The notes under the pieces: model-generated
The model's input: the letters and a program-made list of their open reading frames with translations, nothing else
Told to the model about the DNA's origin: nothing
The model's database searches: none
Position numbers and translations under genes: made by a program
Shown here: positions 16,902 to 63,469 of the stretch, piece by piece
How the letters are laid out: every line of letters starts with the position of its first letter
How positions within the stretch are numbered: the stretch's first letter is position 1
Source: a virus
Lineage: Duplodnaviria; Caudoviricetes
Direction: 5' to 3' (one strand)
Virus record (IMG/VR): IMGVR_UViG_3300021399_000102
Span: 128,001-192,000 of that record
DNA: 64,000 nt

Positions 16902-17651
16902 TCAAATCTTCTACCCATATCTCCTCAGGAAGTCCTCCCTTGCAGCCTTTTGCATCTCCATCATCTTCTGCTGTTGCTCGTCTTGCGCCACCGGTGACTT
17001 CATTTGCGTTTCCATCCCGTTCTTGTCAAGCAACACGAAATGCGTATATGCGCAAGTGAAGGAATGTTGGATTTCATCTGCTTCAGAATAGGACAATTGA
17101 AGGTCAGAGAATGCCTTTATCCAACAGTTCTTGAACCTGAATCCAACTATGGGCTTCTTGTAGGGCGAGAGCAATGTAACATCTATGTCGCAGGCGTTTA
17201 TCAAACCATTTGCCTCTACGTTTCCAGTATCAAGTGCATTCACACCCTTGTTTACAGGAGCGTTGTTCATGCACCAATTGTAAAGCGCACGGTAGTCTGT
17301 CCAATCCGCACTCACGAAGTAGTTGAATGTGATTTCCTTGCTGCCAGGAGACATTGTATATGTCGGCCTTTCAATCTCAATGGAACGATACATAACCTTG
17401 TCAGTACCCATTTCAATTGAAGGAATCGTGAATGTTGATAGACGGAGATTGACATTTTGAAAATCTGGCCCGAGGCACAAATAAATCGGAATATCTGCCA
17501 CCCATTTGTTTTTGGCAGCAAAAGCATTTTGATTAGAAATCCCGTCATTTGCATTGACATTGATTCCAGGATACACCAACTACTATTTCCTGTTCAAGTT
17601 CCTAGTTTGGTTTGGATGTTGAAAGTGATTGACATTATTGGGTATAGACAT
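16902..17651 (-). CDS. tail tube family protein (T4 gp19/gp54-like) with 3 in-frame TAG
   Basis: FTIPSIEMG...ITFNYFVSADWTDYRALYNW...FRFKNCWIKAFSDLQLSY...FTCAYTHF. Tandem TAGTAG near the N-terminus and one TAG before the final TGA. Confidence 0.75.
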
Positions 17652-24848: not shown

Positions 24849-26231
24849 TCAAGTATAAAAATTGGAAACAGCAAGTCTTCTGCAGGTCGGAACCAATATA
24901 GTGGACTGGACCCAGTTTATCCCATCGGTCGAATAGAGAGTTGGGTTGTTTGCGTCCCTGTATTGATGTACATTCGCGGCCTATGAACTTGAATTGATTA
25001 CTGAACGAAGAGCTAACACAAACATGCTTCCAGTAAATATAAGATGTGCTCCAGAAGTCTGGACAGTAACCGTTGGCTACTGTGATGAATATTGCGTTTC
25101 TTTATCAAATGTCACTGTTGGCAGTTTCTTGACTTGTCTCCATCCAGAAAGTAGGTTTCCATTTGCTGTTTTTGTATAGATATAGTCCTATGCGACAAGA
25201 ACATAAACGCCATTGCCTTCCACTATACGCACCCTGTAATGATAATCCCATTCAATTGGTATTGAGTTCCCATTGGTGTCAGTTGGGTATTGGTCATATA
25301 CCCATGAAATGCCATCTGAACCGAGTGTTCCAATGCAAAAGCAAACGGTGTGGTAGTGCATAGAATCTATCGAAGCACCGGCACATACTATTTGGTTGTT
25401 TATTATTGTGCAACTGTTGTAATCGAAATTGGTAGCAGATAGACGATTAAGTGCGTTAGTGAAAGTCTATCCCCCATCAATGGAGAAGTCCAATTTCCCT
25501 CCACCACATGTATGCATGACCAAAAACACGTCTTTCATCTCGTTTGATACGGTTATGCGTCCGTAGCAACAATCTTCAAACACATCAGTAGTCATGTAGA
25601 CATCTGTCCCAGCAGTGTTAAGTTTAGACCGTGTCCAATTTATTCCATCGGTGGAATACCATGGACCCACGTAGTCTCCTGCTGTTTCCCCTGGATAAAC
25701 TGGATCGCACACAACTATGTATCTTGGTGAGTTTTCGTACAGTCCACCACAGCAAAATACCATTTTCTACATTTTTGTATTGCCATCTATCCAATTTATT
25801 CCATCGGTGGAATATTGGGGTCTTGCGCTGGTTCCAGTAGTATACACAGTACGTATGAACTTTCCTTCGGGTCCAGACCAGCACACGCTTGATACTGGCA
25901 ATATGCTTGCATCTTCACTATCTCTCCAATTGAAGTTTGTTTCAGTTGCGTCGCCAACATATTGGGTTGCTCCCATCGTGCTGCTATCATATCCATTTAT
26001 TCCTGTAGATAGACCGAATGCTCCAACAACAGTACTATACTATCTCCATATGGCATATAATGTCGTGTCTCTTGGAAAACCGGCTTCTACATAATCGCCA
26101 TCTTGGTATTGCACATTGATGGCGTTTTTATCTGTATTCCAACCCATGAAGTCGAATCCTGGACGAACAAATGTATTTGCGTTCAGTTTTGTCTTCAAGT
26201 TTCTCAGTGTTCTTTGTGTTTGCTTCGCCAT
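24849..26231 (-). CDS. tail fibre / receptor-binding protein with Asp-box-like YSTDGINW repeats; 6 in-frame TAG
   Basis: Continuous 460-aa frame if TAG is sense. YSTDGINW occurs three times, with an N-terminal InlB-B-like repeat. Confidence 0.75.
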
Positions 26232-26245
26232 GTTGATATTTGTCC

Positions 26246-27151
26246 TTATGCTATCTTTATATCCAATTTAAGTATTTTCATAGTTACAACATCAAACTGG
26301 CTCTGTGTCAAGTTGTAGCCAGTTGGTCCTTTGTAGTACAACCGGATCACATTGTCTCCAGTGGTTTTACTTACCAATTTGCTGTTCAATCCTGTCGCCC
26401 CCAAAGCCTTGAATTCTTTGTATTGGGGAAAAGACGATGGATACTAAAGCTATACCACATAGTTTGTATTTGGGCAAAACCTGATGCCAAACTAACTATA
26501 TGTGTTACTATCTGCGTCATTGTTTATAACAATCCAATTGTTAGAAGTTTGGGTAATTCCAAACATTCCACTGCTAACACCACTACTAATTGCTGTGAAG
26601 TAATTTCCACCTGTATTCAGGTTGTCGTTGATGAACTATGTTATTTGTTGTGGCGTTTGGTTTTCAATCGTAACAATCCCAGATTCCATTGTATTTGCAT
26701 ACACAAGTGGTACGATACGCAAGGTATAGGAATATGACGTAGTTGTAGGATTTATTTTTATGACAGATCCAGATCCACAATAAAACCCTACATCCGAAAA
26801 TCGTGCCGGTACCGAAACAGAATCCACAATACAAGGTACACTAGTGGAGTCACCACCATTAATATTTGTGCGATAATACCACACAAAGCAATCACACGGA
26901 ATGGTAACCGATTGTTGCGAAAGTATTGAACCTACCGTAATCGTAGATCCCCAATCCGGGATATTTCCATTGTATATGTTCCCGCTTGTATTTCCTAAGT
27001 TAGATATTCCTATTTTGGATCTCAGACTTGCAATGGATACCTTCTTCGACCTATTTGTTCTTTCGCTTGTGTCTACGATGTATAGGATGTCATCGTCGGC
27101 GATGTCATTTTCCTGCAACTCGGTCATTTCACTTACTTTTATGTTTGACAT
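26246..27151 (-). CDS. tail fibre-associated protein; 4 in-frame TAG
   Basis: N-terminal MSNIKVSEMTEL...ILYIVD...SKKVSI motif. Reads through to TAA at 26246. Confidence 0.7.
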
Positions 27152-27167
27152 TATTTGTTTCCCCCTA

Positions 27168-30100
27168 TTATTCGACGATTATGTTATCGTTATTTTCTGC
27201 TATTATTGGAATGTCGTCCTCTGTGACAAGAAACTCATCCCCATCGTTTGAGTCGAATGTCAATGTCACAGGATCTTCAATCCACTTTGCATACAACGTT
27301 TTGTCTTCTGCAAAATCGCAGATGTGTGCGTTTTCTCCAGACGATGTGTAGTATTGCACTCCTCCTCCATTTGGGTAAGAGTAGTATCCACCAAAGATGT
27401 ATCCTGTCCTCGTTGGTGGGGTTATGGTTGGCATTGCCTCACCATAGGTTGCTGTCACGCCTGATGTTCCACCAGTCCCGTTTTGCCTATTGAATGTCAC
27501 TGTACATTGAATGGCTTGCCATGTAGGAGTCATTGTAATGTCACCGAATGTATTGGCAGGAATGTACAATTTTTCGGGGTCAGTGCTGATCACATAAGGA
27601 CTTGTACCACTATACCCAGAAAATGTCCAACCAGATATTCTATATCCTGTTCTTTCAGGCAATGTAATTGATATGTTGCTTTGCAAACTTGAAGATTTGT
27701 AGTAGTGGTTTGGTGTAGTGAAGCCAGAAGAACCACCATTTGGATTGACAGTTATTGTATATCCATTGCGCCACCAAGCATATAATGTATGGTTATTCGG
27801 TGTAGTTACCGTGGTACTTGAATCCACCAATGTCCCAGATGAAGTGTCAGACTGGGCTTCTGTATACCACCCACTAAACAAGGTATACTATACATTGGTT
27901 GTTGGTGTTGGCAATTCTCCATATGGAGAACCATATGTAACCAACTTGGATGTGGGGGATACCGAACCATGTCCTGGATTGAAGGTCACGGTATATTTGG
28001 GAGATTCCCAAACAGCATATAAATCAACTGTCGCTCCATCTGTTGAAGTAAGATTCTTCACACTTTGTCCATTGTTGTATTCTTTGTTTCCATCTCTGCT
28101 CTTTGCCCAACCTTGAAACGTGCTGCCTGTTTTGGAGAAACCATTTGGACTCAAGCTCTATTCAATGCCATATGTGAAGTTCTATGGATCCATAGTCCCG
28201 GTTCCACCATTCGGGTTGAATCTCACCGAATAGGTGTTTGGTTTCCATTGTGCTGCAATTGTTACCTATCCATCATTCAATTCTGTCAAGTTATTGAAAC
28301 TCACTGCACCACTTGGACTTCCATTTGCGCATAGCATTGACGAAGATGTTATGATATTATTGCACGATGATATGGATGTTCCATATTTTGCGGTAGTTGT
28401 ATTCAATCCACTTTCCACACACCAACCCTTGAACTGGTATCCTGTTCTGACCAAGGCGTCAACAAGAAATGCGTTGTCAAATGTTGCAGATATGTCAGAG
28501 AGAGTCCCACCATATCCATTGCTTATATGCACAAAATATGTGTTCGCCTCCCAATTTGCGATTATCTCCATATCCTCTTCTGGGGCAATATCAGAGGAAA
28601 CAACTTTCCTTTCCAACGTCTCATCATCAGTATACCAACCAGAGAATTGATATCCTTGTCTCACAGGAATTGGGAAATCTCCAGATGGGGTGTTTCTTTC
28701 GTAACTAAACGCCTGCCCTGTCCAACAACTCCTTGTCTATGGAACATCATCCTCAAAGTAGCCCAAGTTCGTATTGAAGGTAAGTGTCATCTTTCCATCC
28801 TTCCAATGGGCATAAAGCGTGTGGTTGCTTGGAGTTGTCACTATTGTGCTTGACTTTACTTCAGAACCTCCTCCCTCACGTGTGAACCATCCAATAAAGG
28901 CATAATCGTCGTGAGTTGGCGTTGGCAATGTTCCATATTCCTGTCCATATGTCACTGACTTTGTTTGATGCTCAACATTCCCCTCTGTTGGGTCAAATGT
29001 CACGACGTAATTGTTGGCAGTCCAATGGGCATACAATGTTGTTGGTGCTGATGGTTGATATTCCTGTCCAGAACCATCTATCTCGATTCCATCATTGTTC
29101 GGGGAAGTCCACCATTTGGTGAATGTATATCCTGTCCTGTTGGCGTTTGGCAAATATATATTGCCCCAATTTCCCCATTTGGCATACAATGTTATGCTGG
29201 TTTCTGTTGTCAAGTTCTTGACATTCTATTGGTTGTTGTAGATCTTGTCCCCGGCGGCGCTCGTCGCCCAACCCAAGAATTCCCTATATGAAGTCAAACT
29301 GGATTCTGTTGGATATCCACCGTTTCCGTTGAAGCTTACCACCAAAGAGTTAGAGAACTCGTTCTATCTCAACTTCTGATATACATCGTATGTGAATGTC
29401 TGATCTTCCATCGTACCAGTTCCACCGTTGGCATTGAACTTCACGATGTATATTCTGATATCCCAATTCGCCACATAGGACTTGTTTCCTGTTGAACCTG
29501 TTGGAATGGATACTTCGGTTTGTGGCGTATTGCCATTGCTTCCTGTCCATCCAACGAATTGACGGCCAACATATTCTGGCGTAAGCAAGTCATACTTGTT
29601 TGACTCTATATTATAACTTGCTCTTGGTGTTTGACCAGAACTCCAACTTCCACCATTGAGGTTGTATGATATGGTATAGTTGGTCAAGTTCCAATGTGCG
29701 TAACATTCAAAGCTATGCTCCACTGTCAAGTCACTTGTTATTTGTTCTCCATCTTCTGACCACCAATGGTCTTGGCTATATCCTGTTCGGTTTGCTATTG
29801 GAAGCGTACCAACTTTAGAGCCATATTCCCTCTCTGAGGTAAATGTCTCGCATCCAGGATAGTTTGGATTCCAAGTGATTGTGTATGTATCGGCTATCCA
29901 CTGCTCATACAAGTTCAAGTCGTTATATACCTTCTTTGTTGCAAATACTTGATCACCATCTGTCCTTGCAGTAAACCATCCCTTGAATGTATATCCCTAT
30001 CTTGTTGGGTTTGGTGGAAGTTCCCCAAGTCTTGCACCCTGTCGTATTTTTGGGTGGCGTCCAGATTCACCATCCCATATTATGTATGGGGCCGTTTCGT

Positions 30101-32645
30101 TTTCTTTATAGAATCTAATGATATATTCAGGAACTTCTGGCTTGTTCCAATGGGCATAATATGTTACGTTGTCGTTTATTACCTTCCACGATTCGTCAAT
30201 CTTGCTTCCCTGATTTGGTCTATGGTCTGTATACCATCCATCAAATCCAGTAACCATTTCTGGAAGTTCATCCGGAATTGGAAGAAAGCCAATCTCATCT
30301 CCATGATTGTATGTCCTCTTGAAAATCGTGTCTGAACCCCCAAGACCACAATTTGTGGATGCGCAGTTGTATTTTGCAGTATGTTCATTGACATTGAATG
30401 TCACTGTATGCTTGATTGTCTGCCATTGTGCGGTATAGTAGGAATTTCCCTACACAATGTCGTTTCTTACATCAGTGTGGTTCTTTATGCTTCCATCCGG
30501 ACATTTCCATCCAATTAATTCATATCCTGTTCTCTCTGGTTTCACGGGAGGAAATGGATATTCACCAATAGTTTCGCCAATAGTCTTTTCACCCGCCCAG
30601 TTTCCATATGGGTCATGTCCAGCTGGCTTGAACATACCTCCATTTCCCAAGAAGTACACTTTGCACTTGTTGTCCTTCGGCTCACCTGTTATCTCGCGTT
30701 CTGCGTCAGTAAGTTCAGTGCACTCCCAAATATATACCTTCATGTAGGGGGGCAAGTTGTCGTGGGGCAACGTGATTTCATTTTCCTTTTTGCTTGGATA
30801 TTCAAGAGGGCTTATTTGATAGTTCCTGTTTGTGTTCTCGATTTTAACAGAGTTTCTTGTGTCACTGCTTGCCAAGGCTGTATTGACGATTTTCGCGTCG
30901 CCTCCCTTGTTCTTTGCCATCCACTCCTGCTCTCGTGTCGTTATTTGACTTTCGTTTGATGGTAGAGTTTCTGAATGGGAATGGATAGGTATGTTGGATT
31001 CCCTCAATTCCACATATTCCTCGCCAAGCTTCTTACCTGGGATGTCTATAGTAATATCATATTCCTTTACATGTGATTCATCCCATGCTCCTGGACTATG
31101 ATGTTGTATGAATACATAAACAACATTATTATATCTTACCAAGTCCCCAATCTAATATTCGTTTGATGTGTTAAATATGGATATTGTTGAAATGTCCATA
31201 TTGACTCCCCTCAAGAAGTTCTCTATTCTGCGCCAAGATTTTCCACCATAGTTTGCTATGACCTTTTGCTCTGTGTCGTCGGTGTATGATATTATGATTC
31301 GTCCAATGTAGTTCAATGGTGGAACTGACTTGCAAAGTTGTTCAGCAATTTCAATCTTCTCTTCTATGGCATCCAAACGCTTGGAAGCTTGGTTGTACCA
31401 TTGCATGAATTCAGATACTGGCATGAGAAGACCATCAAGAAGCTTCATCAACAATTCATTCATCGAGCCATCTTTGGTGGAAAGTTCCTTGTTGGTCTTG
31501 TCTGAGAATATGTCAAGGAGCATTTGCAGTCCCTGACGCCACAGTTGGATTTGTTGCTTTCCATCATAGGCTATTCTCAATATGCAGTCATGTGGAGTAA
31601 GATTCTCTTCAATGTAGTCCGGAAGCTCGCACACCATTGCTGAATCGTATCTGGATTCTGCTGCGCTATTTTGCCTTTTTCCGTCTTCGGCTTGTCCATC
31701 TCGGATTTCGGCGATTCGCTTGACGATTTCTTCGTATGTTTCAGTAGATTCAGTAAATCCTCTTATGGTTGGTTGATTTGCATCCCAATATCTGACGTAT
31801 ATGTTCAAGGAAGGTGGGACATTGTTGTGTTCTTTCTTTGGATTTCTCCAATCCAATATGTTCTGTCCCCAAAGTGGATATGTCAATGCTTCATTTGTGG
31901 CGTGTTCCAAAGGGGTTGCCTTGCCTCCAATAGATGGTCCGTATTTTGTACCCTATGCCACCAACTCCTTGCTTCCAATCGTGAAGTCTCCAATCAATTG
32001 TCCACCACCAAACTTGTCAGAAAGAGGACCAGTGAGGGTTTCCGCCATTGTGTCCGGGTGTTTATGCTGCAATGGGAGACTGCCAATTGAAACGTCGTCT
32101 AAACCACCAATTGTGGCTTTGTTGGAATCCGTGGTCTTACACCATATTTGACCAAGTGAATAGGACATATTTCTGTAAATCGGGCCAAATATGCTATCGT
32201 CAGAAGGATTCAATTTCCAAGTAAGTTTCCTTGTGTTGTTGGATTGAAGTTCAACTGCTCCAGCATAATCCAGAACACCCTTGCGCCTCAATCCCAATAT
32301 GATGTCGTCTAAGCCATCTTCAAGATTCTTCAATTTCTCATCAAAGCCATTCATGAACGTTCTGGCTTCACTGCTCCTGACATAGTTCTTGAACTTCTTA
32401 GCTATATCAGTTTCATCAACCCCTGATGGACTTATCTTTGGTGGGTTCTGACTATAATCCAACAATTCACCAAATATGGACTCTTTCAACTTCGTGAACA
32501 AATCACTCTATTTCAGAGCCATATATCCTCTGGTTGATGTTGATGTTGGGAAGAACAAGAAGCAATCGTTGTCATTGTCTGACAACGTGAGTTCATGCAC
32601 CGAAATTGGATTGATTCTGAGGTACTCTCTGACGTCAATGTTCAT
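27168..32645 (-). CDS. ~1825-aa baseplate/tail adhesin with many InlB-B (Listeria-Bacteroides) repeats; 12 in-frame TAG
   Basis: Nine track ORFs are co-linear and in frame, separated only by TAG. Repeated PTRxGYxFxGW...LYAxW units and gp10-like HNNVPP/HDNLPPY segments. Confidence 0.85.
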
Positions 32646-32664
32646 GGTAAATGATATTTACCAT
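32644..32664 (-). promoter_or_regulatory. late promoter motif GTAAATA inside an inverted repeat overlapping the start codon
   Basis: ATGGTAAAT-ATC-ATTTACCAT(G). Confidence 0.65.
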
Positions 32665-54874: not shown

Positions 54875-54949
54875 TGGAGCCTCCACCCCGGGTCGAACGG
54901 GGACGAGCTGATTACAAATCAGCCATTCTACCATTACAATTATAGAGGC
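54875..54949 (-). tRNA. tRNA-Thr(UGU)
   Basis: Cloverleaf, anticodon loop TTTGTAA, CCA. Confidence 0.9.
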
Positions 54950-54959
54950 AACTTGAAAC

Positions 54960-55034
54960 TGGTGGACCGCCGGGGAGTTCAACCCCGCTATCTGCCGTGC
55001 AAAGGCAGTGTAATAAGCGATATACGAGCAGCCC
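54960..55034 (-). tRNA. tRNA-Ala(UGC)
   Basis: Loop TTTGCAC, G3-U70, CCA. Confidence 0.88.
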
Positions 55035-55064
55035 ATTGTAAATCCTATTGTCAATTATACGAAA

Positions 55065-55823
55065 TCATTTAAGCAGAAGTGAATCATTCAAAATTATTTT
55101 TCCATCTACAAAGTCTTTATATTGTTTCTCACCAATAAAGTAGATTCTTATTCCTGGATTATTTTCCAAGACAAGACTCATCTTTTCCTTGTCTTTGTCT
55201 GAATAATAACCCTTTACTTCAATATACTCGTTTGTATCAGGTAAGTAGAAATCTGGATTATAGGTCTTGCGTATTCCATCCTTAATGTATTTCAATGATT
55301 TGTTTCTGATCCAATTTATGTCGGTTGAAGTTAATTTGTTGGCAACATTCTCCTCCCAGTGACCCCGTACAGTATATTCAACCCCATCTAAGTTCTTCAC
55401 TTTATACCAACCAACATCTTTGAATCCCCCTTTACACGAATCAAGATATTTAGAACGAATTTCAGAAAGTTTCTCTCGTGTTTCTTTGGTGTGAGTATGA
55501 TGTAAAATTCTTTTTTGTGAGATTTTATTTTTCTCTGCTATTTGTCTTATTTTTATTGATGTCTCGCTGGTCAATCCCTTGTTCCATGCCATTCCCTTCT
55601 TAAATCCATGTTTCTCTTTTCTATGGATTTGCATTTCTTTTCTTGTACAGAAAATACTTCCACAAATTGTACACTTCCAAGTGTGTTGTTGTCTATTCAC
55701 ATTAAAATTGCACACATGATGTTTGACTTGTTTGCCAATGAATACATGCCTACAATGATTGGAGCAGAATCTTCCGCTCCCATATGTCCCATCATGGGGA
55801 TTTCCACAATTCTCACATTTCAT
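55065..55823 (-). CDS. free-standing endonuclease (zinc fingers, NUMOD3-like, PD-(D/E)XK)
   Basis: CENCG, CTICG, AWNKG, YNPDFYLP...IEVKGY. Confidence 0.8.
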   Translation of the reverse strand: MKCENCGNPHDGTYGSGRFCSNHCRHVFIGKQVKHHVCNFNVNRQQHTWKCTICGSIFCTRKEMQIHRKEKHGFKKGMAWNKGLTSETSIKIRQIAEKNKISQKRILHHTHTKETREKLSEIRSKYLDSCKGGFKDVGWYKVKNLDGVEYTVRGHWEENVANKLTSTDINWIRNKSLKYIKDGIRKTYNPDFYLPDTNEYIEVKGYYSDKDKEKMSLVLENNPGIRIYFIGEKQYKDFVDGKIILNDSLLLK

Positions 55824-55935
55824 AATTTTACCTTTAGTTTAATGTCGTTGTTCGCTCAACGACATCTTTATTTACAATTATACGAAAAGTTGTCCTCGAA
55901 TCTGTTGGAGCGAACCATGAGTCCGAGGGCAAAAT

Positions 55936-56028
55936 TGGTTGGGGAGGCGGGGCTCGAACCCGCGATTGATGTAATCTCAAGAACCAACTACGTTTCTACG
56001 GCTTATAAGACCGCGTCGCTACTCCCCA
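55936..56028 (-). tRNA. atypical tRNA-Ile(UAU) lacking a normal D-arm
   Basis: Acceptor TGGGGAG/CTCCCCA, loop CTTATAA, canonical T-arm, ACCA. Only ~5 nt where the D-arm should be. Confidence 0.65.
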
Positions 56029-56044
56029 TTGAAATTAAAAGTTG

Positions 56045-56140
56045 AAGCCCAAGAAATGGGTCAAATACATCGGTTTTCTTCCGAAGTGAAATCCCCATCT
56101 TCGCCGTTTAGACATTTCTGATTTATAACTCTTGGACTTC
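56045..56140 (-). ncRNA. candidate closed-stem RNA
   Basis: GAAGTCCAAGA / TCTTGGGCTTC terminal helix. Confidence 0.45.
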
Positions 56141-56306
56141 TGGGAGTTATACCCGGCGCGTTCAATCACTCCGCCACCATACCACAGGCTGCGATAGGGA
56201 GGGATTCAAACCCCCGGTCGAAGATTCGCCTTTCAGCAAAAGATAACACCCAACAGCAACCGGTTTGCGGTGGGTATTCTTCGACACCGAACACTGTTAT
56301 CTCCCA
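56141..56306 (-). ncRNA. circularly permuted tRNA-like RNA (Y RNA/YrlA-like candidate)
   Basis: Order is T-arm, loop-closed acceptor stem, D-arm. The ends pair TGGGAG/CTCCCA. Confidence 0.65.
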
Positions 56307-56320
56307 TTTAACTTGAAACC

Positions 56321-56397
56321 TGGAGCATCAGATGGAACTCGAATCCACAACCTCGTCCATGGCAAGGACGCGCTCTGACCAATTGAGCTACTGACGC
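56321..56397 (-). tRNA. tRNA-Gly(GCC)
   Basis: Canonical, loop TTGCCAT. Confidence 0.92.
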
Positions 56398-56401
56398 AAG
56401 A

Positions 56402-56476
56402 TTGCCGTGCGATTTCACTGCCGACCGATGTGCCCGAAGCATCTATCATTCGCCCGATCAAGCTTCAACACGGCAA
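56402..56476 (-). ncRNA. candidate closed-stem RNA
   Basis: TTGCCGTG/CACGGCAA terminal helix. Confidence 0.45.
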
Positions 56477-56479
56477 AAG

Positions 56480-56554
56480 TGGATCGAATGATGGGTGCTG
56501 CTCCCACTTAATCCAACCTGGCAGATTGGTGTACTGCTGATGTACCACATTCGC
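56480..56554 (-). tRNA. tRNA-Gly(GCC), non-canonical elbow
   Basis: Loop CTGCCAG, T-loop AGCAGCA. Confidence 0.75.
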
Positions 56555-56561
56555 ATTAAAT

Positions 56562-56637
56562 TGGTGCGATGTGCCGGTGACGCTCCGGCCCGTTCAGCTT
56601 GGAAGGCTGACATCCTGCTAACATAAATGAACATCGC
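56562..56637 (-). tRNA. tRNA-Gly(UCC)
   Basis: Loop CTTCCAA, T-loop AGCGTCA. Confidence 0.82.
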
Positions 56638-56676
56638 AAAAATCCTTAAACCATGACGAAAGGGAAGCATTGAAAC

Positions 56677-56751
56677 TGGTTGTCCCGCCAGGATGTGCGC
56701 CTGGTCTAAGGGTATCAAAAACCCCTGTGCGGACTGATACACCACAGGACA
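56677..56751 (-). tRNA. tRNA-Gln(UUG)
   Basis: Loop TTTTGAT, U1-A72. Confidence 0.82.
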
Positions 56752-56761
56752 TACATTGAAA

Positions 56762-56999
56762 TTGGGCAGGGTTTGCTTTTCCGGGGTCACCTGCGTTCTC
56801 CCCAACCGAAGACCCACGAGGGGCTTTTGATGTTTCTCGTTCGGCATCCACCTGGGGGATGGCGATACACGCAGTAGGCTACGCTGCTCCCTGGGTCTGC
56901 TGTTCCCCCAGCTCAGCCCAACACGTTCTTGGGACTTCACCAACGGTCGATTCGTCTACGTCCTGTTGGCTTGCATATGGCGTTGTTCGTGATATCCCA
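56762..56999 (-). ncRNA. one or two GC-rich candidate structured RNAs
   Basis: TTGGGC/GCCCAA (56762-56921) and TGGGA/TCCCA (56930-56999) closing helices. Confidence 0.45.
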
Positions 57000-57012
57000 C
57001 AATATTGAACTC

Positions 57013-57087
57013 AAGCAACACGTCGGGATTCGGACCACGGTCTCCCCCCATACGAGAGGTATTCTGCCTTTTTGAACTATTCGTGTC
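57013..57087 (-). pseudogene. degenerate tRNA
   Basis: D-arm and TCCGAAT T-loop present, anticodon loop broken, no CCA. Confidence 0.5.
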
Positions 57088-57441
57088 TAATCCTCATGTG
57101 ACGAACAACACCTAAAGAGGGAGTGTTTGCAGAGCAAGACTTCACCGGTAGCCACCATCTTGCTTTTCGACTGCTGGGGTTTCTATCATTCACTCTTCCA
57201 GAATGCATCGAAACTAGGAACTTGCGCGTTAACCTACACACATCACATCCCCTGAACACACAACCCATATTGAAATTCTTGAAGCGGAGTTTGCTTGTGG
57301 ATGCGTCTATAGCCACAGAGCCACCATGTTTACGGACCAGGAAAGAAGCTTTCTGACCCCTGAATCCTATTTGTCCATTCATGACTGAACAACCCTCAGA
57401 CGCTTATTATGTCTTCTCCGCACAATCTATCTGAGGGAAAT

Positions 57442-57517
57442 TGGTGTCCCAGACTTGAGTCGAACAAGCCACCTGATTCTTAGGAGGAATCCGCTCTTCC
57501 TGATGAGCTACTGGGAC
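57442..57517 (-). tRNA. tRNA-Arg(CCU)
   Basis: Loop CTCCTAA. Confidence 0.92.
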
Positions 57518-57532
57518 ATTGAAATGCAGGAA

Positions 57533-57628
57533 GGAAGAAGAACGTAGTGGACTCGAACCACCTCAGCCGTCGCATTCTCAATCAAGAGTGGGAACACCCA
57601 TCCCAGATGTACGTTCTTGCTTCTCTCT
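57533..57628 (-). ncRNA. tRNA-like RNA with extended acceptor stem and no CCA
   Basis: GGTGG-TTCGAGT-CCACT T-arm, AAGAACGT/ACGTTCTT stem. Confidence 0.5.
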
Positions 57629-57632
57629 CAAA

Positions 57633-57706
57633 TGGCGGGGTATCCGGGTGCTGCCCCCGGGACGCAAGTTAGACAGACTAACGTGATACTGTTTCACCAA
57701 TACCCC
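57633..57706 (-). tRNA. tRNA-Asp(GUC)
   Basis: Loop CTGTCTA, T-loop GGCAGCA. Confidence 0.8.
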
Positions 57707-57719
57707 CTTGAAATAGCAA

Positions 57720-57879
57720 GGTCTCATTTTTCAACCACTCGCCACCCATCCTACTCGGATTTTGAGATGTCTCCTGTACGGGGAGCCACGTATACTTTCG
57801 CTCGCCACTACTCGCGCACCGCCCATATTGGCGGCCTCTACTGTCCTTTCAGCCTTAGCCTTGTCCGTTGTATGAGACC
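57720..57879 (-). ncRNA. candidate ~160-nt closed-stem RNA
   Basis: GGTCTCAT/ATGAGACC terminal helix. Confidence 0.5.
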
Positions 57880-57969
57880 CATATGTGAATCTGTTGCGTT
57901 CACGTGTTCTACGCAACTTCTGGCATGCCGAGGGGATGATCCACAATCCCCAAATCAAATCCATTCACT

Positions 57970-58112
57970 TGTCAAAGAACAACCTTTGTCTAATGCGCAA
58001 GCATTATTCAAAGAGCAATGTCTTTCCGGATGTTCTTGGACACATCCATCAAAGAGCAATAGCCATCAAAATTGGCATAGATAATTATACAATACATCAC
58101 GACCCAAGTAAA
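57970..58112 (-). promoter_or_regulatory. internal promoter with three boxA-like sites in its leader
   Basis: TTTACT-17-TATAAT. TGCTCTTTGA twice and TGTTCTTTGA once. Confidence 0.7.
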
Positions 58113-58130
58113 GGGAATTTTCAACAAAAA

Positions 58131-58208
58131 TGGTCTTCACGGAAGGAATCGAACCTTCGACCTCCACTATGTCAAAGTGGCACTCTTAACCTACTGAGCT
58201 ACGCGAAG
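58131..58208 (-). tRNA. tRNA-Val(GAC)
   Basis: Loop TTGACAT. Confidence 0.92.
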
Positions 58209-58210
58209 TT

Positions 58211-58285
58211 TGGTGGATGAGGAGAGAATCGGACTCCCAGCACATACCATGTGAAGGTATTGCTCTACCATTGAGCTACTCATCC
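58211..58285 (-). tRNA. tRNA-Val(CAC)
   Basis: Loop TTCACAT. Confidence 0.88.
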
Positions 58286-58295
58286 ATATTGAAAT

Positions 58296-58372
58296 TGGGT
58301 TGTCTTGCTGGTTCTGCCCCAGCGATTTCCCCGTCCACAGCGGGGCGTCTTCACTACTCGACCAAAGACAAC
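58296..58372 (-). tRNA. tRNA-His(GUG)
   Basis: Loop CTGTGGA, G-1/C73. Confidence 0.85.
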
Positions 58373-58381
58373 ATCTAAATT

Positions 58382-58464
58382 CGGAGTGTGATAGATTTGC
58401 ACTATCGGATGCTTTCACATCACAGATTTCCAATCTGACCCAATAACTACTCTGGCAACACTCC
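58382..58464 (-). tRNA. tRNA-Ser(GGA)
   Basis: Long variable arm, CCA not encoded. Confidence 0.82.
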
Positions 58465-58471
58465 ATAAATT

Positions 58472-58566
58472 CGGAGTTGGGTGGATTTGAACCACCACAG
58501 GGACTTTGACATCCCCTACTAACGGTTTAGCAAACCGTGGCCTTACCTGGTTAGGCTTACAACTCC
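58472..58566 (-). tRNA. tRNA-Ser(GCU)
   Basis: Long variable arm, CCA not encoded. Confidence 0.85.
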
Positions 58567-58573
58567 ATAAAAG

Positions 58574-58662
58574 TGGAAGAGGGTATCCGATTCGGACGGA
58601 TGGACGCTATTAACGCCACAGAGGTTCAAGCTCTGCTCAATAGACCACTCTGACAACCCTCC
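58574..58662 (-). tRNA. tRNA-Ser(UGA)
   Basis: Loop CTTGAAC, long variable arm. Confidence 0.85.
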
Positions 58663-58673
58663 ATTGAAATCTA

Positions 58674-58759
58674 CGGATGGAGCTGGACTTGCACCAACAT
58701 GTGGCTTTCACCACCCTTGCTTTCGAGGCAAGACCTTTACTATTTAGGAGAATCCATCC
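58674..58759 (-). tRNA. tRNA-Ser(CGA)
   Basis: Loop CTCGAAA, long variable arm. Confidence 0.8.
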
Positions 58760-59033
58760 ATCTTGAAATTGAAAAGGAATATGGCGTTCCTGTTTCGCAA
58801 GGTTATGAGCCTTGAATACGACATGGACTCAGATGACTACTCGCTGTGGCTGGTCACATCTTCCGGAAGTTTTGCGGACTTGACTTTTTTAGTCCCGCCA
58901 GTTGGAGCATTGCTTTCGCACCACTTGTTGCTGTATCGCACAAGCATATTTCGTCATTCAGGCTTGCCATCAAGCCTTGGCTTTTCTGCTACCCCCAGGG
59001 AGAGAAATGCCAACAAAGAGACATCGTTGAAAT

Positions 59034-59192
59034 TGAACCAGAGACCAGAATTATTCGGCATGAACTTGCTTGGCATCGTCACACCAAGTATGTAGGTTCA
59101 TACGTCAACCTTTAACGACTGCAAGAGTTGGACGTACACGAGGTTGCTATCCATTGGTACGTGTGGTCTTCTTCGGCGCTTATCTCTGTTCA
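59034..59192 (-). ncRNA. candidate multibranch RNA
   Basis: TGAACAGAGA/TCTCTGGTTCA closing helix and several internal hairpins. Confidence 0.5.
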
Positions 59193-59240
59193 GACCATCT
59201 TCATGCGAGTCTTATGACTGGAATGCGAATCCAATCAAAA

Positions 59241-59328
59241 TGATGGAAGCAGTGGGATTCGGGCCCACATTGGGGATTTCACCCATCCGCTTACCGAAGA
59301 TTCCTTTCCTGTTCGGTTTCATGCTCCC
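59241..59328 (-). ncRNA. tRNA-like RNA with rearranged D/anticodon region
   Basis: Acceptor GGGAGCA/TGCTTCC, T-arm GTGGG-CCCGAAT-CCCAC. Confidence 0.5.
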
Positions 59329-59333
59329 ATAAA

Positions 59334-59419
59334 TGGTCGGAGTGGAGGGATTTGAACCCCCGAGGCTTTCGCATCTGCTCCCAAAGCAGACCCGGTACCA
59401 GGCTACGGTCTACACTCCG
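59334..59419 (-). tRNA. tRNA-Pro(UGG) with long variable arm
   Basis: Loop TTTGGGA, C1-G72. Confidence 0.85.
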
Positions 59420-59432
59420 ATGTAAATTGTAA

Positions 59433-59848
59433 ATGAACCATCCGACTGGGAGTTGCCCCACCTTGCGTCTAAACAAACGCTGCGCAAGCAACCATCGCAG
59501 GACATCCCACGAATTTTCACCATATCCCATTTATCTGCATCCACCTGCAACGGATGTACCCCTCCACTTTTATTGTGTGAATCATTGGGATCCGCCAAGG
59601 CAGATCGTTATCTAGGACTTTCCATTGCTCATGGGTAGCCTTTCTTTCGGGTATGCACCTTCGTTTATACGAAGCATCTCCTCTTCTCGGAGAAACCTTC
59701 GCAATCAGCATGAGTTTTGCTACTCTACTCACCACTATAGTGCGCCCATTCACTCATTAAGGGGCTTGGTTTAACTTACTTTCCATTGTGGTGTAAGGCT
59801 GCCGTTGAAGCATTAAGCATACTGGGTTTCACTCCCCATCTGGTTCAT
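59433..59848 (-). ncRNA. ~416-nt large structured RNA candidate
   Basis: ATGAACCA/TGGTTCAT plus GGGAGT/ACTCCC end-to-end helices. No convincing ORF. Confidence 0.6.
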
Positions 59849-59857
59849 AAAGTCGAT

Positions 59858-59957
59858 TGTCAAAGAGCAATCTTTGTCTATGCGAACTTGTCGCACATCA
59901 AAGATCTACGTTCAAATGAACGTATTCAATTATACGCGCAATTGAACGTATTGTAAA
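59858..59957 (-). promoter_or_regulatory. internal promoter with boxA-like leader
   Basis: TTTACA-17-TATAAT, TTGCTCTTTGACA. Confidence 0.7.
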
Positions 59958-59959
59958 GT

Positions 59960-60034
59960 TGGCATCCCTGCACGGTAACGCTCCGTGGTCTGGTGGATGA
60001 AAACCACCCGATCTTACTTTTAATCTACAGGGAC
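59960..60034 (-). tRNA. tRNA-Glu(UUC)
   Basis: Loop TTTTCAT, T-loop AGCGTTA. Confidence 0.85.
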
Positions 60035-60078
60035 ATTGAAAGAGCAATGGTTGTTTGATTTGCAAACACACATTGAAA

Positions 60079-60152
60079 TGGCAGCTCTGCACGGTATCGC
60101 GCCGTGTTCTCCTGCGTGAGAGGCAGGCGATCTGCTTCTAATCTACAGAGCC
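60079..60152 (-). tRNA. tRNA-Glu(CUC)
   Basis: Loop CTCTCAC. Confidence 0.85.
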
Positions 60153-60265
60153 ATTGAAATTGAAATCCAATTAAACGACATCGCTCTTTATTTGATGTGG
60201 CAATCACTGCCACATGGCAGTTTATTTTGTTTCGGACAGAGCCTTGCCAACCTCTTAACCATCAT

Positions 60266-60353
60266 TGGGAACGATGGATGGAGTCGAACCATCATGTTTG
60301 ATTGCATAACCAAACGTCTTGAAAATTGCTTGGCAATATTCAACCAATGTTCC
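60266..60353 (-). ncRNA. tRNA-like RNA / pseudo-tRNA
   Basis: GATGG-TTCGACT-CCATC T-arm, atypical D and anticodon arms. Confidence 0.45.
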
Positions 60354-60465
60354 AAGGGGGAATCGGACCCGTTGTTGCCTATCGTCATACTTCTCACCAG
60401 AGTAAGAACATCAATCATGGAATTGCCTTAACCATCTTGCAAGTTGGATAAATGAACAAGTCATT

Positions 60466-60544
60466 TGGAGAGCGAGGTGGGAATCGAACCCACATTATCG
60501 CGGTTTTGCAGACCGCGCCCAGTGCCAATATCGAGAACTCGCCC
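60466..60544 (-). tRNA. tRNA-Cys(GCA)
   Basis: Loop CTGCAAA, U73. Confidence 0.88.
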
Positions 60545-60548
60545 AAAT

Positions 60549-60658
60549 TGACAAGCGACACCCGGTCTGGTTTGACGGGGCAGAGCTGCGCAGATTGCAC
60601 CCCTCCAGCATCTCGCCGTGCGCAATGGCGCGTTCTGATTGAACTACGTATGTGTCGC
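60549..60658 (-). ncRNA. tRNA-Arg(GCG)-like RNA with expanded T-arm
   Basis: GCGACAC/GTGTCGC stem, D-arm GTTC/GAAC, loop TTGCGCA. Confidence 0.45.
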
Positions 60659-60668
60659 AAATTATCTA

Positions 60669-61352
60669 TTAAATTATACGGCCTTTTCTCCAACCATTTG
60701 GAATTGGATTTGTTTTTAGAATGACTTTGTTCTCACCAGTTAAATCATTACAAATCCACATCTTTCCAAATTGATTGTTGTTTCTACCTTGTTTCTTTTC
60801 TGACATTTTTCTACGAGATTCGTTTGAATGATGCTTACCATACATGGGGTTTAATTCGCCCGTTTTAGGATGACTTTTGGCGTATTGTTTATTTGCCATT
60901 GAATTCTTTTTACGCCATTCTTCATATTTCTCAGGATTATTTTCTTTCAACCGTTTAGCCCACCCTTTTGATGGATATTCACCCGTTTCTTCAAAAATCC
61001 TTTTACATGTTTCAGAAAGTGGCTTAAAATTTCCACTATGATTTAATCCAGTTGTGTTCAAATAATCCCAACCACCTTGACCACCAAGTTTGATGTTATA
61101 GACATCATTACGATTCAAAAAATCTTCATTTACGAGTTCAGCTTCCTTTGCGTTCATTTCCTCTTGTGAAGAACACTCAAATAGAATCTCTCGCTTGAAA
61201 TTCTGTTCGCCATACTTCTCTATGGCGCGTTGGATTAGAATGCCCGAACCCAAATATCCATCATCCAGGTTGTCCGTTTCATGTTTGCCAATGTAGATTT
61301 TACCATTGACCAGATTAGTGGTCTTGTAAACCAAATAATGTTTCTTCTTCAT
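60669..61352 (-). CDS. GIY-YIG homing endonuclease with NUMOD3
   Basis: LVYKTTNLVNGKIYIGKH, YLGSG, YNIKLGG, NPMYGKHHS. Confidence 0.9.
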   Translation of the reverse strand: MKKKHYLVYKTTNLVNGKIYIGKHETDNLDDGYLGSGILIQRAIEKYGEQNFKREILFECSSQEEMNAKEAELVNEDFLNRNDVYNIKLGGQGGWDYLNTTGLNHSGNFKPLSETCKRIFEETGEYPSKGWAKRLKENNPEKYEEWRKKNSMANKQYAKSHPKTGELNPMYGKHHSNESRRKMSEKKQGRNNNQFGKMWICNDLTGENKVILKTNPIPNGWRKGRII

Positions 61353-61472
61353 GTTCTTTTACCTTTAGATTTACGAGGTTGTTTGCTCCAACCTCATTAC
61401 TGTTTACAATTATACTCAGATTAAGTCCCCACATCCCTGTTGGGAGCAAACCATGAAGGAGGGGGACAAATT

Positions 61473-61545
61473 CACGGTCTGGTGGAGTCGAACCACCCTC
61501 TTCGGATTTGGAGTCCGAGGCACTCTCCATGAAGACCAAGACCGT
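61473..61545 (-). tRNA. tRNA-Trp(CCA)
   Basis: Loop CTCCAAA, CCA end not encoded. Confidence 0.8.
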
Positions 61546-61552
61546 ATTGAAA

Positions 61553-61628
61553 TGGCACTCCCACTCAGATTCCAACTGAGAATACAGAGTTCGTAGCCCT
61601 GGAGTTTATGCGATTAGCTTATGGGAGC
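61553..61628 (-). tRNA. tRNA-Arg(ACG)
   Basis: Loop CTACGAA, T-loop TTGGAAT. Confidence 0.83.
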
Positions 61629-61638
61629 ATTCAAGAAA

Positions 61639-61712
61639 TGGCTGGGGATGATGGTATTGCGCCACCTCTAAAAGGTTCAGAGCCTTCTGTACCACTTTTA
61701 TACGAATCCCCA
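61639..61712 (-). tRNA. tRNA-Gln(CUG)
   Basis: Loop CTCTGAA, U1-A72. Confidence 0.85.
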
Positions 61713-61913
61713 ATTGTTAAAAGAGCTGAGCGTTTTTGCCGATGTTTGGTTATCTATTCATTGATATCCATACATTGGGGAGTGGAGGATGTACACCATC
61801 AAAGCTCGTGTACCGACCCATGAAACACACAAACCACCTGGTCTTATGGTGATTCCAGGAACCAATCAATCCCACAATATCTGAATAAGTGGAGTCAAAT
61901 CGTAAATTGAAAT

Positions 61914-62064
61914 TGGCGGCAACGTCCGATTCTCACGGCACAAACAGCTCCCTGCTGCCATGCTCATATGGTTTCCCTATCTAGAGTCAAGAAACCACGT
62001 CCCTTGTTTCGGAGCAAGGCGAATTCAATTCCTTTGACTCCTTCGTGGATTACATCATATTGCC
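61914..62064 (-). ncRNA. 151-nt CCA-ended tRNA-like RNA
   Basis: GGCAAT/GTTGCC stem plus GCCA, short T-like hairpin. Confidence 0.55.
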
Positions 62065-62069
62065 AAAAT

Positions 62070-62101
62070 TGGTGGAAGTGTCGCACAAGGGGACACGTAC
62101 C
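62070..62101 (-). ncRNA. minihelix ending in ACCA
   Basis: GTGTC/GACAC hairpin plus ACCA. Confidence 0.4.
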
Positions 62102-62106
62102 ATAAA

Positions 62107-62180
62107 TGGTGGACACGTCCGGTAACGCTCCGGAGTCTCCTCAATGCCATTGAGGTGTTCTACTATTGAACTAGCGGCCC
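62107..62180 (-). tRNA. tRNA-Ala(GGC)
   Basis: Loop ATGGCAT, G3-U70. Confidence 0.85.
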
Positions 62181-62182
62181 AT

Positions 62183-62256
62183 TGGTGGAGTCGTCGAGAA
62201 TCGAACTCGGATCTCTTGAATGCGAATCAAGCGTTCTACCACTGAACTAACGCCCC
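62183..62256 (-). tRNA. tRNA-Ala(CGC)
   Basis: Loop TTCGCAT, G3-U70. Confidence 0.9.
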
Positions 62257-62268
62257 ATTGTGAAATCT

Positions 62269-62371
62269 TGGCGTGAGAGGGAGTCGAACCCTCGTCTCGT
62301 TCATTGCCATTGAAATGTCCCGGCCGTAGAACCAATGACATTGAGTTGTTCTGCCGTTGAACTATCACCCC
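62269..62371 (-). ncRNA. tRNA with ~30-nt expanded anticodon arm
   Basis: Normal D and T arms flank the insertion. Confidence 0.6.
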
Positions 62372-62381
62372 ATCTTGAAAT

Positions 62382-62494
62382 TGGTTGGAACAACCCTACC
62401 TTCAGTATCATGAACTTTGACCCGTTTCAATCAAGAAACTGTCGGTCCAATAGGCTTGCGTTCCCAAACAGGAAATCTTCACGTCGTCATTCCA
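62382..62494 (-). ncRNA. 113-nt CCA-ended non-tRNA RNA
   Basis: TGGAATGAC/GTTGTTCCA stem plus ACCA. Confidence 0.55.
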
Positions 62495-62500
62495 AAATTA

Positions 62501-62576
62501 TGGTGGAAGAGGATGGGATCGAACCATCACCTTTGGATTTTCAGTCCATAGTACACACCAAGTATACGACCCTTCC
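62501..62576 (-). tRNA. tRNA-Phe(GAA)
   Basis: Loop CTGAAAA. Confidence 0.88.
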
Positions 62577-62586
62577 ATTATGAAAT

Positions 62587-62704
62587 TGGTGGCTGTCTTG
62601 TGGTTATCTACTCCACTGTCTCCCCAACGGGCGATGCATCAACCCATAACGTCAGGGAACCCGTTTTACGCACGGGACAAGACCAATTACTTGCGTATCA
62701 AGCC
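62587..62704 (-). ncRNA. 118-nt CCA-ended non-tRNA RNA
   Basis: GGCT/AGCC plus ACCA, GTCTTG/CAAGAC helix. Confidence 0.55.
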
Positions 62705-62712
62705 ATTGAAAC

Positions 62713-62799
62713 TGGTTGTGAGGGTTGGAATTGCACCAACGTTGTTTCTAATGTGGCGGGTTTACAGCCCGCTGCGTTCGCTACTACGCTAACCCCACA
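62713..62799 (-). tRNA. tRNA-Tyr(GUA)
   Basis: Loop CTGTAAA, long variable region. Confidence 0.85.
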
Positions 62800-62808
62800 A
62801 TAAAATCT

Positions 62809-62896
62809 TGGTTGGAGAGGTGGGACTCGAACCCACGACAGAATTACCATGCGGGTGTATCAGACCCGTGCGTTACACCAACTTCGCCACTCTCCA
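62809..62896 (-). tRNA. tRNA-Ile(GAU) with long variable arm
   Basis: Loop CTGATAC. Confidence 0.83.
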
Positions 62897-62916
62897 ATTG
62901 AAATCTCGAAATCGTT

Positions 62917-62991
62917 TGGTGTCGGATGGTGGAGTCGAACCACCTTATAACGCCGTATGAAAGCGCACCATGACCGTTCTGGCAACCCGAC
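62917..62991 (-). tRNA. tRNA with CAU anticodon (Met or Ile2)
   Basis: Loop TTCATAC. Confidence 0.85.
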
Positions 62992-62994
62992 ATT

Positions 62995-63069
62995 TGGAGC
63001 TGGAAATTGCACTCGCAGCAATGTTATCCGTCTTACGAGGACGGCGCCTGACTTCTCAGCCATTCCAGC
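62995..63069 (-). tRNA. tRNA-Thr(CGU)
   Basis: Loop CTCGTAA. Confidence 0.8.
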
Positions 63070-63206
63070 ATACTTGAAAGGTTGCTTGCATTCACATGAG
63101 TGGTTGTTGGTTTGTTCTCCAACGAGGAATCGGGAACTCATGAAGAAAGAACCATACCGAAGAACATCTTCGTGCAATGCAAGGCTTGAAATTCATCGTG
63201 AAATCT

Positions 63207-63281
63207 TGGAGCTGACGGAAGAACTCGCATCTTCGTGTTCCGTCATACCAAGACGGCACCTAACTTCTCAGTCACATCAGC
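63207..63281 (-). tRNA. tRNA-Thr(GGU)
   Basis: Loop TTGGTAT. Confidence 0.85.
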
Positions 63282-63291
63282 ATTGAATCGT

Positions 63292-63370
63292 TGGTAGGGA
63301 TGATGGGATTCGGACCCATACTGTACACGCCCTGAACGTGTCGCCTGCTGCCAAATTGGGCTACATCCCC
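63292..63370 (-). tRNA. tRNA-Leu(CAG), short variable arm
   Basis: Loop TTCAGGG. Confidence 0.83.
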
Positions 63371-63382
63371 ATTTGTCGAAGT

Positions 63383-63468: not shown

Positions 63469-63469
63469 C

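Follow-up and report, generated by a model that had tools for sequence, protein, structure and literature searches.

Recoded genes in the window

The window analysed here is a stretch of 64,000 nucleotides (nt) that spans bases 128001-192000 of one IMG/VR virus record of 201,557 bp (IMGVR_UViG_3300021399_000102, referred to below as the contig or G000) with a GC content of 45%. The locus under study is a block of three minus-strand genes at positions 24849-32645 where the reading frames are interrupted by TAG codons that appear to be read as glutamine (Gln). When TAG is read through, the frames run for 1825, 301 and 460 codons and contain 12, 4 and 6 TAGs respectively with no internal TAA or TGA, and the genes are packed tightly with gaps of 14 and 16 nt between them. 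Under translation table 11 the same stretch splits into many short open reading frames (ORFs). An earlier reading of the window made from the letters alone (the sequence-only reading) had described frames of these lengths broken only by TAG, and the ORF listing with TAG read through bears this description out.

Over the 1825 codons of the longest of the three genes the coding frame is free of internal TAA and TGA, of which the two alternative frames on this strand contain 74 and 94, and the chance of such an absence across 1825 codons is estimated from composition at about 1e-37. Pfam domains were found to extend across TAGs, and for 109 of the 163 in-frame TAGs in contig genes that have orthologues, the alignment to these extends to either side. 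ORFs of the contig without TAG all terminate in TAA or TGA. The recoding spans the contig, where ORFs of 3621, 2616, 1698 and 834 amino acids (aa) with 14, 8, 6 and 10 TAGs respectively are open only with TAG read through; a PHROG search with these four proteins returned no match. We conclude, as far as frames and alignments can tell, that TAG is read through in the recoded genes. By manual count about 7 of the 163 TAGs sit in the last 5% of their ORF, which is not above chance, and termination at TAG during early infection may still occur. Some in-frame TAGs were noticed one to three codons ahead of a TAA or TGA stop, for example codon 247 of 249 in the tail tube gene (window 16911) and in several other contig genes. 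These near-terminal TAGs, the number of which is no higher than chance, may be former terminators that are now read through to the next stop.

The protein encoded by the 1825-aa gene begins with an N-terminal third without assignment and continues with a weak CBM5/12-like stretch; Listeria-Bacteroides (Flg_new) repeats make up the C-terminal two thirds. Tandem copies of this repeat of about 65 aa score above the cut-off of Pfam PF09479 (E 3.5e-82, 270.9 bits, 8 stretches) and a custom hidden Markov model finds 13 of them, and the protein resembles a tail fibre or adhesin. Neither Pfam nor PHROG gives a match for the 301-aa protein, whose orthologue is absent from three complete related genomes; the support for read-through in this gene consists of frame continuity and tight gene packing. 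The N-terminus of the 460-aa protein carries a partial Flg_new repeat (23.9 bits, just under the PF09479 cut-off of 27), and a stop-free homologue (P0046) that is 55% identical to it aligns continuously over TAG348, TAG385 and TAG417. The motif YSTDGINW occurs three times in the 460-aa protein, where it presumably resembles an Asp-box (SxDxGxTW), and weak homologues carry Pfam families of the Kelch or propeller type. The region with this motif is likely to be a beta-propeller, and it may form a receptor-binding or glycosidase-like domain.

The gene for a gp15-like tail sheath stabiliser elsewhere in the window is interrupted in the same way. Its product matches PF16724 over residues 12-202 (E 2.2e-21, 76.6 bits against a cut-off of 25) and phrog_227 (E 6e-19). 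The true start is probably Met6 (MQIRN...) at position 40071 where the homologues begin, and all 7 TAGs lie inside the gene even from this start, in agreement with the seven read-throughs claimed in the sequence-only reading.

Two results were set aside. A plus-strand ORF at 32651-33664 (337 aa, with 12 TAGs when TAG is read as Gln) is an artefact that runs antisense to TAG-free minus-strand genes and reflects their CTA leucine codons. Greedy ORF density was dropped as a test of the code as the values of 0.846 for code 11, 0.903 with TAG recoded and 0.886 with TGA recoded do not discriminate.

TAG specifies glutamine

Relatives with gp15-like proteins 73-82% identical to that of the contig were found in IMG/VR, and three of these (G001, G002 and G003) are complete genomes with direct terminal repeats and lengths of 433,895, 414,060 and 418,068 bp respectively. 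The contig largely matches 205-379 kb of G002 in collinear order. The contig itself ends without overlap, is classed as linear in IMG/VR and is estimated by CheckV to be 48% complete. We regard the window as part of a bacterial phage of about 420 kb with a T4-like tail and replication module.

A total of 117 TAG sites of the contig could be aligned with orthologues in the three relatives. Their partners were TAG in 56 cases, Gln in 42 (CAG 26 and CAA 16), glutamate (Glu) in 22 and tyrosine (Tyr) in 16, with other residues being fewer, where the background frequency of Gln in this comparison is 3.3%. When a substitution table estimated from the same orthologue alignments was used, the log-likelihood of these partners was -483 for Gln and -567 for Glu, the next best residue, placing Gln ahead of Glu by 83 units and of all other residues by more than 120. 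The reverse test gave the same answer, since TAGs of the relatives lie opposite contig Gln at a rate of 15 per 1000 Gln and opposite any other residue at no more than 4.9 per 1000. The 56 TAG-TAG sites shared with the contig establish, on this comparison, that the clade is recoded. For the 1825-aa gene, where the orthologues are 30-39% identical, TAG46 and TAG231 were found opposite CAA and TAG498 opposite TAG.

The gp15-like protein allows the TAG columns to be followed individually. At its well-conserved positions 35, 75, 115 and 160, seven related loci contain only TAG, CAA or CAG with the exception of one ACC. Twenty full-length homologues that lack TAG (38-83% identical) all have Gln in the column of TAG160, and Gln is also present in the column of TAG75 in the ten closest and in the column of TAG35 in the nine closest of them. 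Columns at TAG are therefore enriched in Gln in the homologues; the sequence-only reading had named a lack of such enrichment as what would refute its proposal.

The repeats of the 1825-aa protein, from which that proposal was originally drawn, were observed to be less informative. The quoted motifs are right codon by codon, with GGTGTMEDQTFTYDVYQKL (both Q being CAG) facing GGTGTMDP[TAG]NFTYGIE[TAG]SL and YNNGQSVKNLT (Q being CAA) facing YNNQ[TAG]NVKNLT, and the TAG coordinates given for them (28182, 28158 and 29226) are exact. The argument holds for the closest pair of repeats at three of three sites and does not extend across the Flg_new family, as the TAG columns of the 13 repeats are variable and mostly not Gln; it is correct but thin. 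Likewise, the motif PTR[TAG]GYTFKGW does span a TAG and so speaks for read-through, while the residue inserted there is not given by the repeats, in which this column is threonine in 8 of the 12 others. The assignment of TAG to Gln (code 15) nonetheless stands, mainly through the orthologue codons, the reverse test and the gp15 homologue columns. Taken at the level of comparative evidence, these data establish Gln as the residue inserted at TAG.

Table 1. Features of the window and of the surrounding contig. Positions are those of the window unless marked as contig positions.
Feature	Position	Strand	TAG codons	Remarks
Tail-fibre-like gene (putative), 1825 aa	27168..32645	-	12: 32508, 31953, 31152, 30450, 29997, 29364, 29226, 28737, 28266, 28182, 28158, 27888	Stop TAA
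301-aa gene	26246..27151	-	4: 26636, 26492, 26450, 26444	Stop TAA; 16 nt downstream of the 1825-aa gene
460-aa gene	24849..26231	-	6: 26040, 25767, 25467, 25188, 25077, 24981	Stop TGA
gp15-like tail sheath stabiliser, 386 aa	38926..40086	-	7: 39982, 39976, 39862, 39742, 39607, 39346, 39136	
Tail-tube-like gene	16902..17651	-	3: 17583, 17580, 16911	phrog_45 (tail tube), E 9e-14
Topoisomerase II subunits, 461 and 644 aa	3042..6375	-	0	phrog_551, phrog_543
DnaB-like helicase, 519 aa	23257..24816	+	0	phrog_19, E 1.8e-64; directly adjoins the recoded block
GTAAATA heptamer, late-promoter-like	32655..32661	-		16 nt ahead of the ATG start of the 1825-aa gene
tRNA array	54875..63912	-		At least 34 genes: 29 found by ARAGORN, 5 by the Rfam tRNA model only
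tRNA-Glu(CUC), Rfam only	60082-60152	-		
tRNA-Asp(GUC), Rfam only	57636-57706	-		
tRNA-Ala(GGC), Rfam only	62110-62179	-		
tRNA-Ala(GGC), Rfam only	62269-62371	-		
tRNA(UAU), Rfam only	55939-56028	-		
tRNA-Gln(UUG)	56677-56751	-		In the array
Non-canonical tRNA-like gene, CUA anticodon, 79 nt	contig 114646-114724	-		13.3 kb left of the window
Giant ORF, 2616 aa	contig 37729-45579		8	Orthologues in relatives; the three giant ORFs are 42-59% identical to theirs
Giant ORF, 3621 aa	contig 53832-64697		14	As above
Giant ORF, 1698 aa	contig 114775-119871		6	As above

Distribution of TAG among early and late genes

The genes near the recoded block include T4-type topoisomerase II subunits, a clamp loader, the DnaB-like helicase, the tail tube, a gp21-like prohead protease and homing or HNH endonucleases, and TAG was observed to be distributed very unevenly among such genes. 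Ten replication and endonuclease genes (5179 codons) contain no TAG and 183 CAA or CAG codons, whereas six structural genes (4099 codons) contain 35 TAG and 141 CAA or CAG codons (Fisher p = 2e-12). TAG forms 18-30% of the Gln-equivalent codons in the recoded genes. We take these counts to establish that early genes avoid TAG.

Two promoter-like elements were noticed upstream of these genes. The GTAAATA heptamer of Table 1 is also found ahead of the TAG-rich 3621-, 1698-, 878-, 550- and 449-aa genes of the contig, while a GTATAAT box was observed no more than 80 nt upstream of 23 ORFs, 22 of which are free of TAG. In addition, a gene for a 488-aa HNH endonuclease (window 33388-34854, minus strand) uses 29 CAG and 2 CAA codons where its neighbours favour CAA or show even use, and this bias suggests a recently acquired mobile gene.

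A candidate suppressor tRNA

A tRNA with a CUA anticodon is absent from the window, as judged from its 34 tRNAs found with ARAGORN and the Rfam tRNA model, and ARAGORN finds no tRNA(CUA) in the whole contig. In relatives G001 and G003, ARAGORN calls a tRNA(CUA) outside the tRNA array, where its neighbours are the orthologues of contig genes 112454-112792 and 113550-114536. The 79-nt element of the contig is located between genes 113550-114536 and 114775-119871, which is the same pair that flanks the tRNA(CUA) of G003. A close 79-nt homologue is present in G002 where it adjoins the orthologue of contig gene 111874-112452. An anticodon-loop scan of this complete genome gives one CUA candidate, namely the 79-nt homologue, and ARAGORN gives no tRNA(CUA) for it. 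A tRNA-like gene with a predicted CUA anticodon is, on sequence grounds, conserved in the clade.

The minimum free energy fold of the G002 copy is a cloverleaf with a 7-bp acceptor stem closed by U1-A72, a 5-bp anticodon stem and CUA at positions 34-36. The 79-nt candidate has G73, an encoded CCA and a D arm like that of the phage's own tRNA-Gln(UUG), which is also the contig tRNA most similar to it. We liken it to an E. coli supE-type amber suppressor tRNA-Gln(CUA), with which it presumably has CUA, U1-A72, G73, G10 and A37 in common. It differs from this type in its 8-nt T loop without TTC, its 11-nt D loop, C38, C33 in the contig copy and a proposed 4-bp Watson-Crick helix between the D loop and T loop that would replace the usual elbow. 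Between the contig and G002 sequences 25 of 25 pairs are kept and four of these are changed on both sides, one of them in the proposed D-loop/T-loop helix, and sliding the partners reduces pairing to 34-52%. The tRNA(CUA) of G001 has a long variable arm and carries U1-A72 and a D arm in common with phage Gln tRNAs.

Upstream of the CUA tRNA or 79-nt gene, the GTATAATTGAA box and a GTTTCAA leader were observed in all four genomes, and in G000 and G002 the 79-nt gene is closely followed by a hairpin and a T run. Since the box belongs to a class otherwise found ahead of TAG-free genes, early synthesis of the suppressor is suggested. An exact-pattern scan of IMG/VR with the D arm of the candidate returned only G002. 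Among 24 IMG/VR loci around the neighbouring 192-aa protein, a CUA tRNA was found only in G001 and G003; the distant loci share just the 192-aa protein and are uninformative on recoding there.

Structurally odd tRNAs are numerous in this phage. Among those found by the Rfam model only, one tRNA-Ala(GGC) has a D loop enlarged by an insertion of 33 nt, and the UAU tRNA has an extra region of 30 nt. The sequence (A)TTTCAA(T) was observed directly ahead of 18 of 34 array tRNAs (window 54875-63912, contig 193217-194582) where its background is 0.6 per kb per strand, and it is likely to be a shared 5' leader or processing signal, which the suppressor candidate carries as well.

Proposed mechanism and alternative explanations

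The explanation that we favour as a whole, with a probability of about 0.93, is that a T4-like phage of about 420 kb reads TAG as Gln (NCBI table 15) in its recoded late genes with the help of a phage tRNA(CUA). The host would use the standard code. The genes that the phage needs first (those for topoisomerase II, clamp loader, helicases, DNA polymerase and homing endonucleases) are free of TAG and would for this reason be readable by a standard-code host ribosome, while virion genes (tail tube, gp15-like gene, three fibre-like genes and giant proteins of 1698-3621 aa) use TAG for 18-30% of their Gln. A phage-encoded tRNA with a CUA anticodon would most likely decode TAG, for which the 79-nt cloverleaf is the candidate in the contig. 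This suppressor would be made early from a sigma70-type promoter and charged with Gln, and its accumulation would license the translation of TAG-bearing late messages, as has been proposed for other recoded phages (10.1101/2021.08.26.457843), so that it may act as a timer of the late genes. That the 79-nt RNA is charged with Gln and functional is presumed here.

Several observations weigh against this explanation. The early and late split is imperfect, as TAG is absent from the genes for the gp21-like head maturation (prohead) protease and an endolysin-like protein and occurs once in each of two others, those for a DNA methyltransferase and an HNH protein. The GTAAATA heptamer was found upstream of 16 ORFs with TAG and of 18 without and, because it also precedes the latter, it is not specific for TAG-bearing genes. 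The 79-nt candidate was missed by ARAGORN and by the Rfam tRNA model even at E <= 10, and the Rfam search at this threshold gave no tRNA match for the G002 homologue either, probably because the T loop lacks the TTC motif. Its anticodon loop in the contig is CCCUAAC with C33, where U33 is almost universal and is present in the CUCUAAC loop of G002; C33 may mean that the contig copy is impaired, or it may come from misassembly. The covariation comes from two sequences only, and 21 of 500 shuffles reach the observed values. Similarity of the candidate to tRNA-Gln is marginal over other tRNAs (score 6.5 versus 3.5). Profiles for a release factor (PF00472) and for GlnRS/GluRS (PF00749) matched none of the four genomes, so that nothing else marks a code-switch apparatus. 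Finally, about half of the genome is missing, and another tRNA(CUA) may lie elsewhere.

The last of these points leads to an alternative where TAG is Gln by way of a different suppressor, either a canonical tRNA(CUA) on the missing half or a tRNA of the host or of a co-infecting phage, with the C33 element of the contig decaying or differently used. Recoded jumbo phages without a detectable suppressor have been reported and borrowed tRNAs proposed for them (PMC13037316), and the incompleteness of the contig, C33 and the failure of both tRNA finders would fit such a case. Yet in the complete genome of G002 the 79-nt homologue has U33, is the sole CUA candidate found and shares its gene neighbourhood with the recognisable tRNA(CUA) of G001 and G003, and the structure-preserving substitutions, the leader in common with array tRNAs and the conservation of the promoter box point to a maintained tRNA gene. 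We consider this alternative unlikely. A further elaboration of the favoured explanation holds that the suppressor represents a structurally rebuilt class of tRNA, with the D-loop/T-loop helix in place of the elbow and C33 tolerated, that standard finders do not see and that, being transcribed from an early promoter of the sigma70 type, would time the code switch; we offer it tentatively, as the odds seem to us to lie somewhat against it.

It is very improbable that TAG is read as a residue other than Gln, such as Glu, Tyr, serine or pyrrolysine, or ambiguously as several residues. Glu and Tyr are the next commonest partners at TAG sites, but the likelihoods given above place both well behind Gln, and the TAC and TAT partners are expected as they are one mutation away from TAG. 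ARAGORN labels CUA tRNAs 'Pyl', which is merely its name for this anticodon, and the long variable arm of the G001 suppressor, as seen in class II tRNAs, is accompanied by the acceptor pair and D arm of phage Gln tRNAs. The mostly non-Gln columns of the Flg_new repeats have to be set against the invariant Gln of the TAG160 column. We give hardly any credence to the remaining view that the TAGs are true stops, in which case the long frames would be an artefact of read-through and the genes would be pseudogenes, products of misassembly or groups of short genes. A tail sheath stabiliser broken at seven places would leave no working tail, 56 TAG positions are common to independent assemblies from other samples, TAG is the sole interruption of a frame as long as 1825 codons, and homology and Pfam domains continue across TAGs. 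This view draws on nothing beyond the default code, apart from the 301-aa gene and the N-terminal half of the 460-aa gene for which no homologue bridges the TAGs.

Relation to known recoded and T4-like phages

Recoding of TAG to Gln in late genes has been published for Lak, crAss-like, Garnet, Amethyst, Topaz and other clades from gut and rumen (Borges et al., bioRxiv 10.1101/2021.08.26.457843), and proteomics has proven it for crAss-like phages (Peters et al. 2022, PMC9523058). The contig lineage resembles these code 15 phages in that in-frame TAG as Gln is concentrated in structural and late genes while the replication genes can for the most part be read with the standard code. A tRNA(CUA) encoded by the phage, here a candidate, a large tRNA array and a model where the code switch gates late expression are further points in common. 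It is unlike them in its genome of 414-434 kb with a GC content of 45-48% and in its T4-like gp15, tail tube, prohead protease, topoisomerase II and clamp loader. The published clade sizes of 562, 210, 201, 154, 34, 34 and 22 kb (10.1101/2021.08.26.457843) do not match the 414-434 kb of the relatives; for Lak (562 +/- 44 kb) the comparison is one of size alone. No release factor gene was found in the four genomes, and the candidate suppressor of the contig and G002 is non-canonical and goes unseen by both ARAGORN and the Rfam tRNA model, which also separates them from the code 15 clades.

A survey of jumbo phages that included IMG/VR found alternative codes in 3.58% of jumbo phages and in 8.75% of those from rumen, described a T4-type Portal_GP20 gene that is split by TAG and restored by code 15, and detected suppressor tRNAs in only about 61% of recoded jumbo genomes (PMC13037316, Anim Microbiome 2026). 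This survey rests on coding density and is without this lineage and without proof of Gln at the level of alignment columns. It accounts for missing suppressors by borrowed tRNAs, whereas here a non-canonical tRNA would account for the apparent absence.

With T4-like phages the lineage shares genes for the gp15-like protein, tail tube, gp21-like protease, topoisomerase II subunits, clamp loader and DnaB-type helicase. It differs from them in a genome more than twice the size, in the lack of any nucleotide-level match in GenBank and in its code, which is the standard one in T4-like isolates. With 12 kb of the window as query, megablast gave no match among GenBank phages, and tblastn of the gp15-like protein found only T4-like cyanophages at 24% identity over half of gp15, with S-RIM44, Syn1 and S-T4 as the best matches, leaving no close isolate for comparison. 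We noticed that the T4-like tail and replication gene set is present in all three relatives (414-434 kb), that is, in phages more than twice the size of T4. As to the host, the Flg_new repeats give no more than a hint, which would point to Bacillota or Bacteroidota of the gut. Our literature search found no description of a T4-like lineage of 414-434 kb and 45-48% GC. We therefore see the contig lineage as a well-supported new example of a published kind of recoding and not as a new phenomenon.

For annotation, the virion genes of this phage and its relatives fall to pieces when genes are called with the standard code, and many gp15-like homologues in databases are fragments of 212-223 aa; table 15 should therefore be used for the clade of about 420 kb. 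The lineage adds a very large T4-like genome to the phages proposed to gate late genes by recoding, and the split between early and late genes is clean here in the sense that adjacent genes have opposite TAG status. A non-canonical tRNA(CUA) may help to explain why suppressors go undetected in a large share of recoded jumbo phages, and if the rebuilt tRNA design were general, many recoded phages that appear to lack a suppressor would carry hidden tRNAs.

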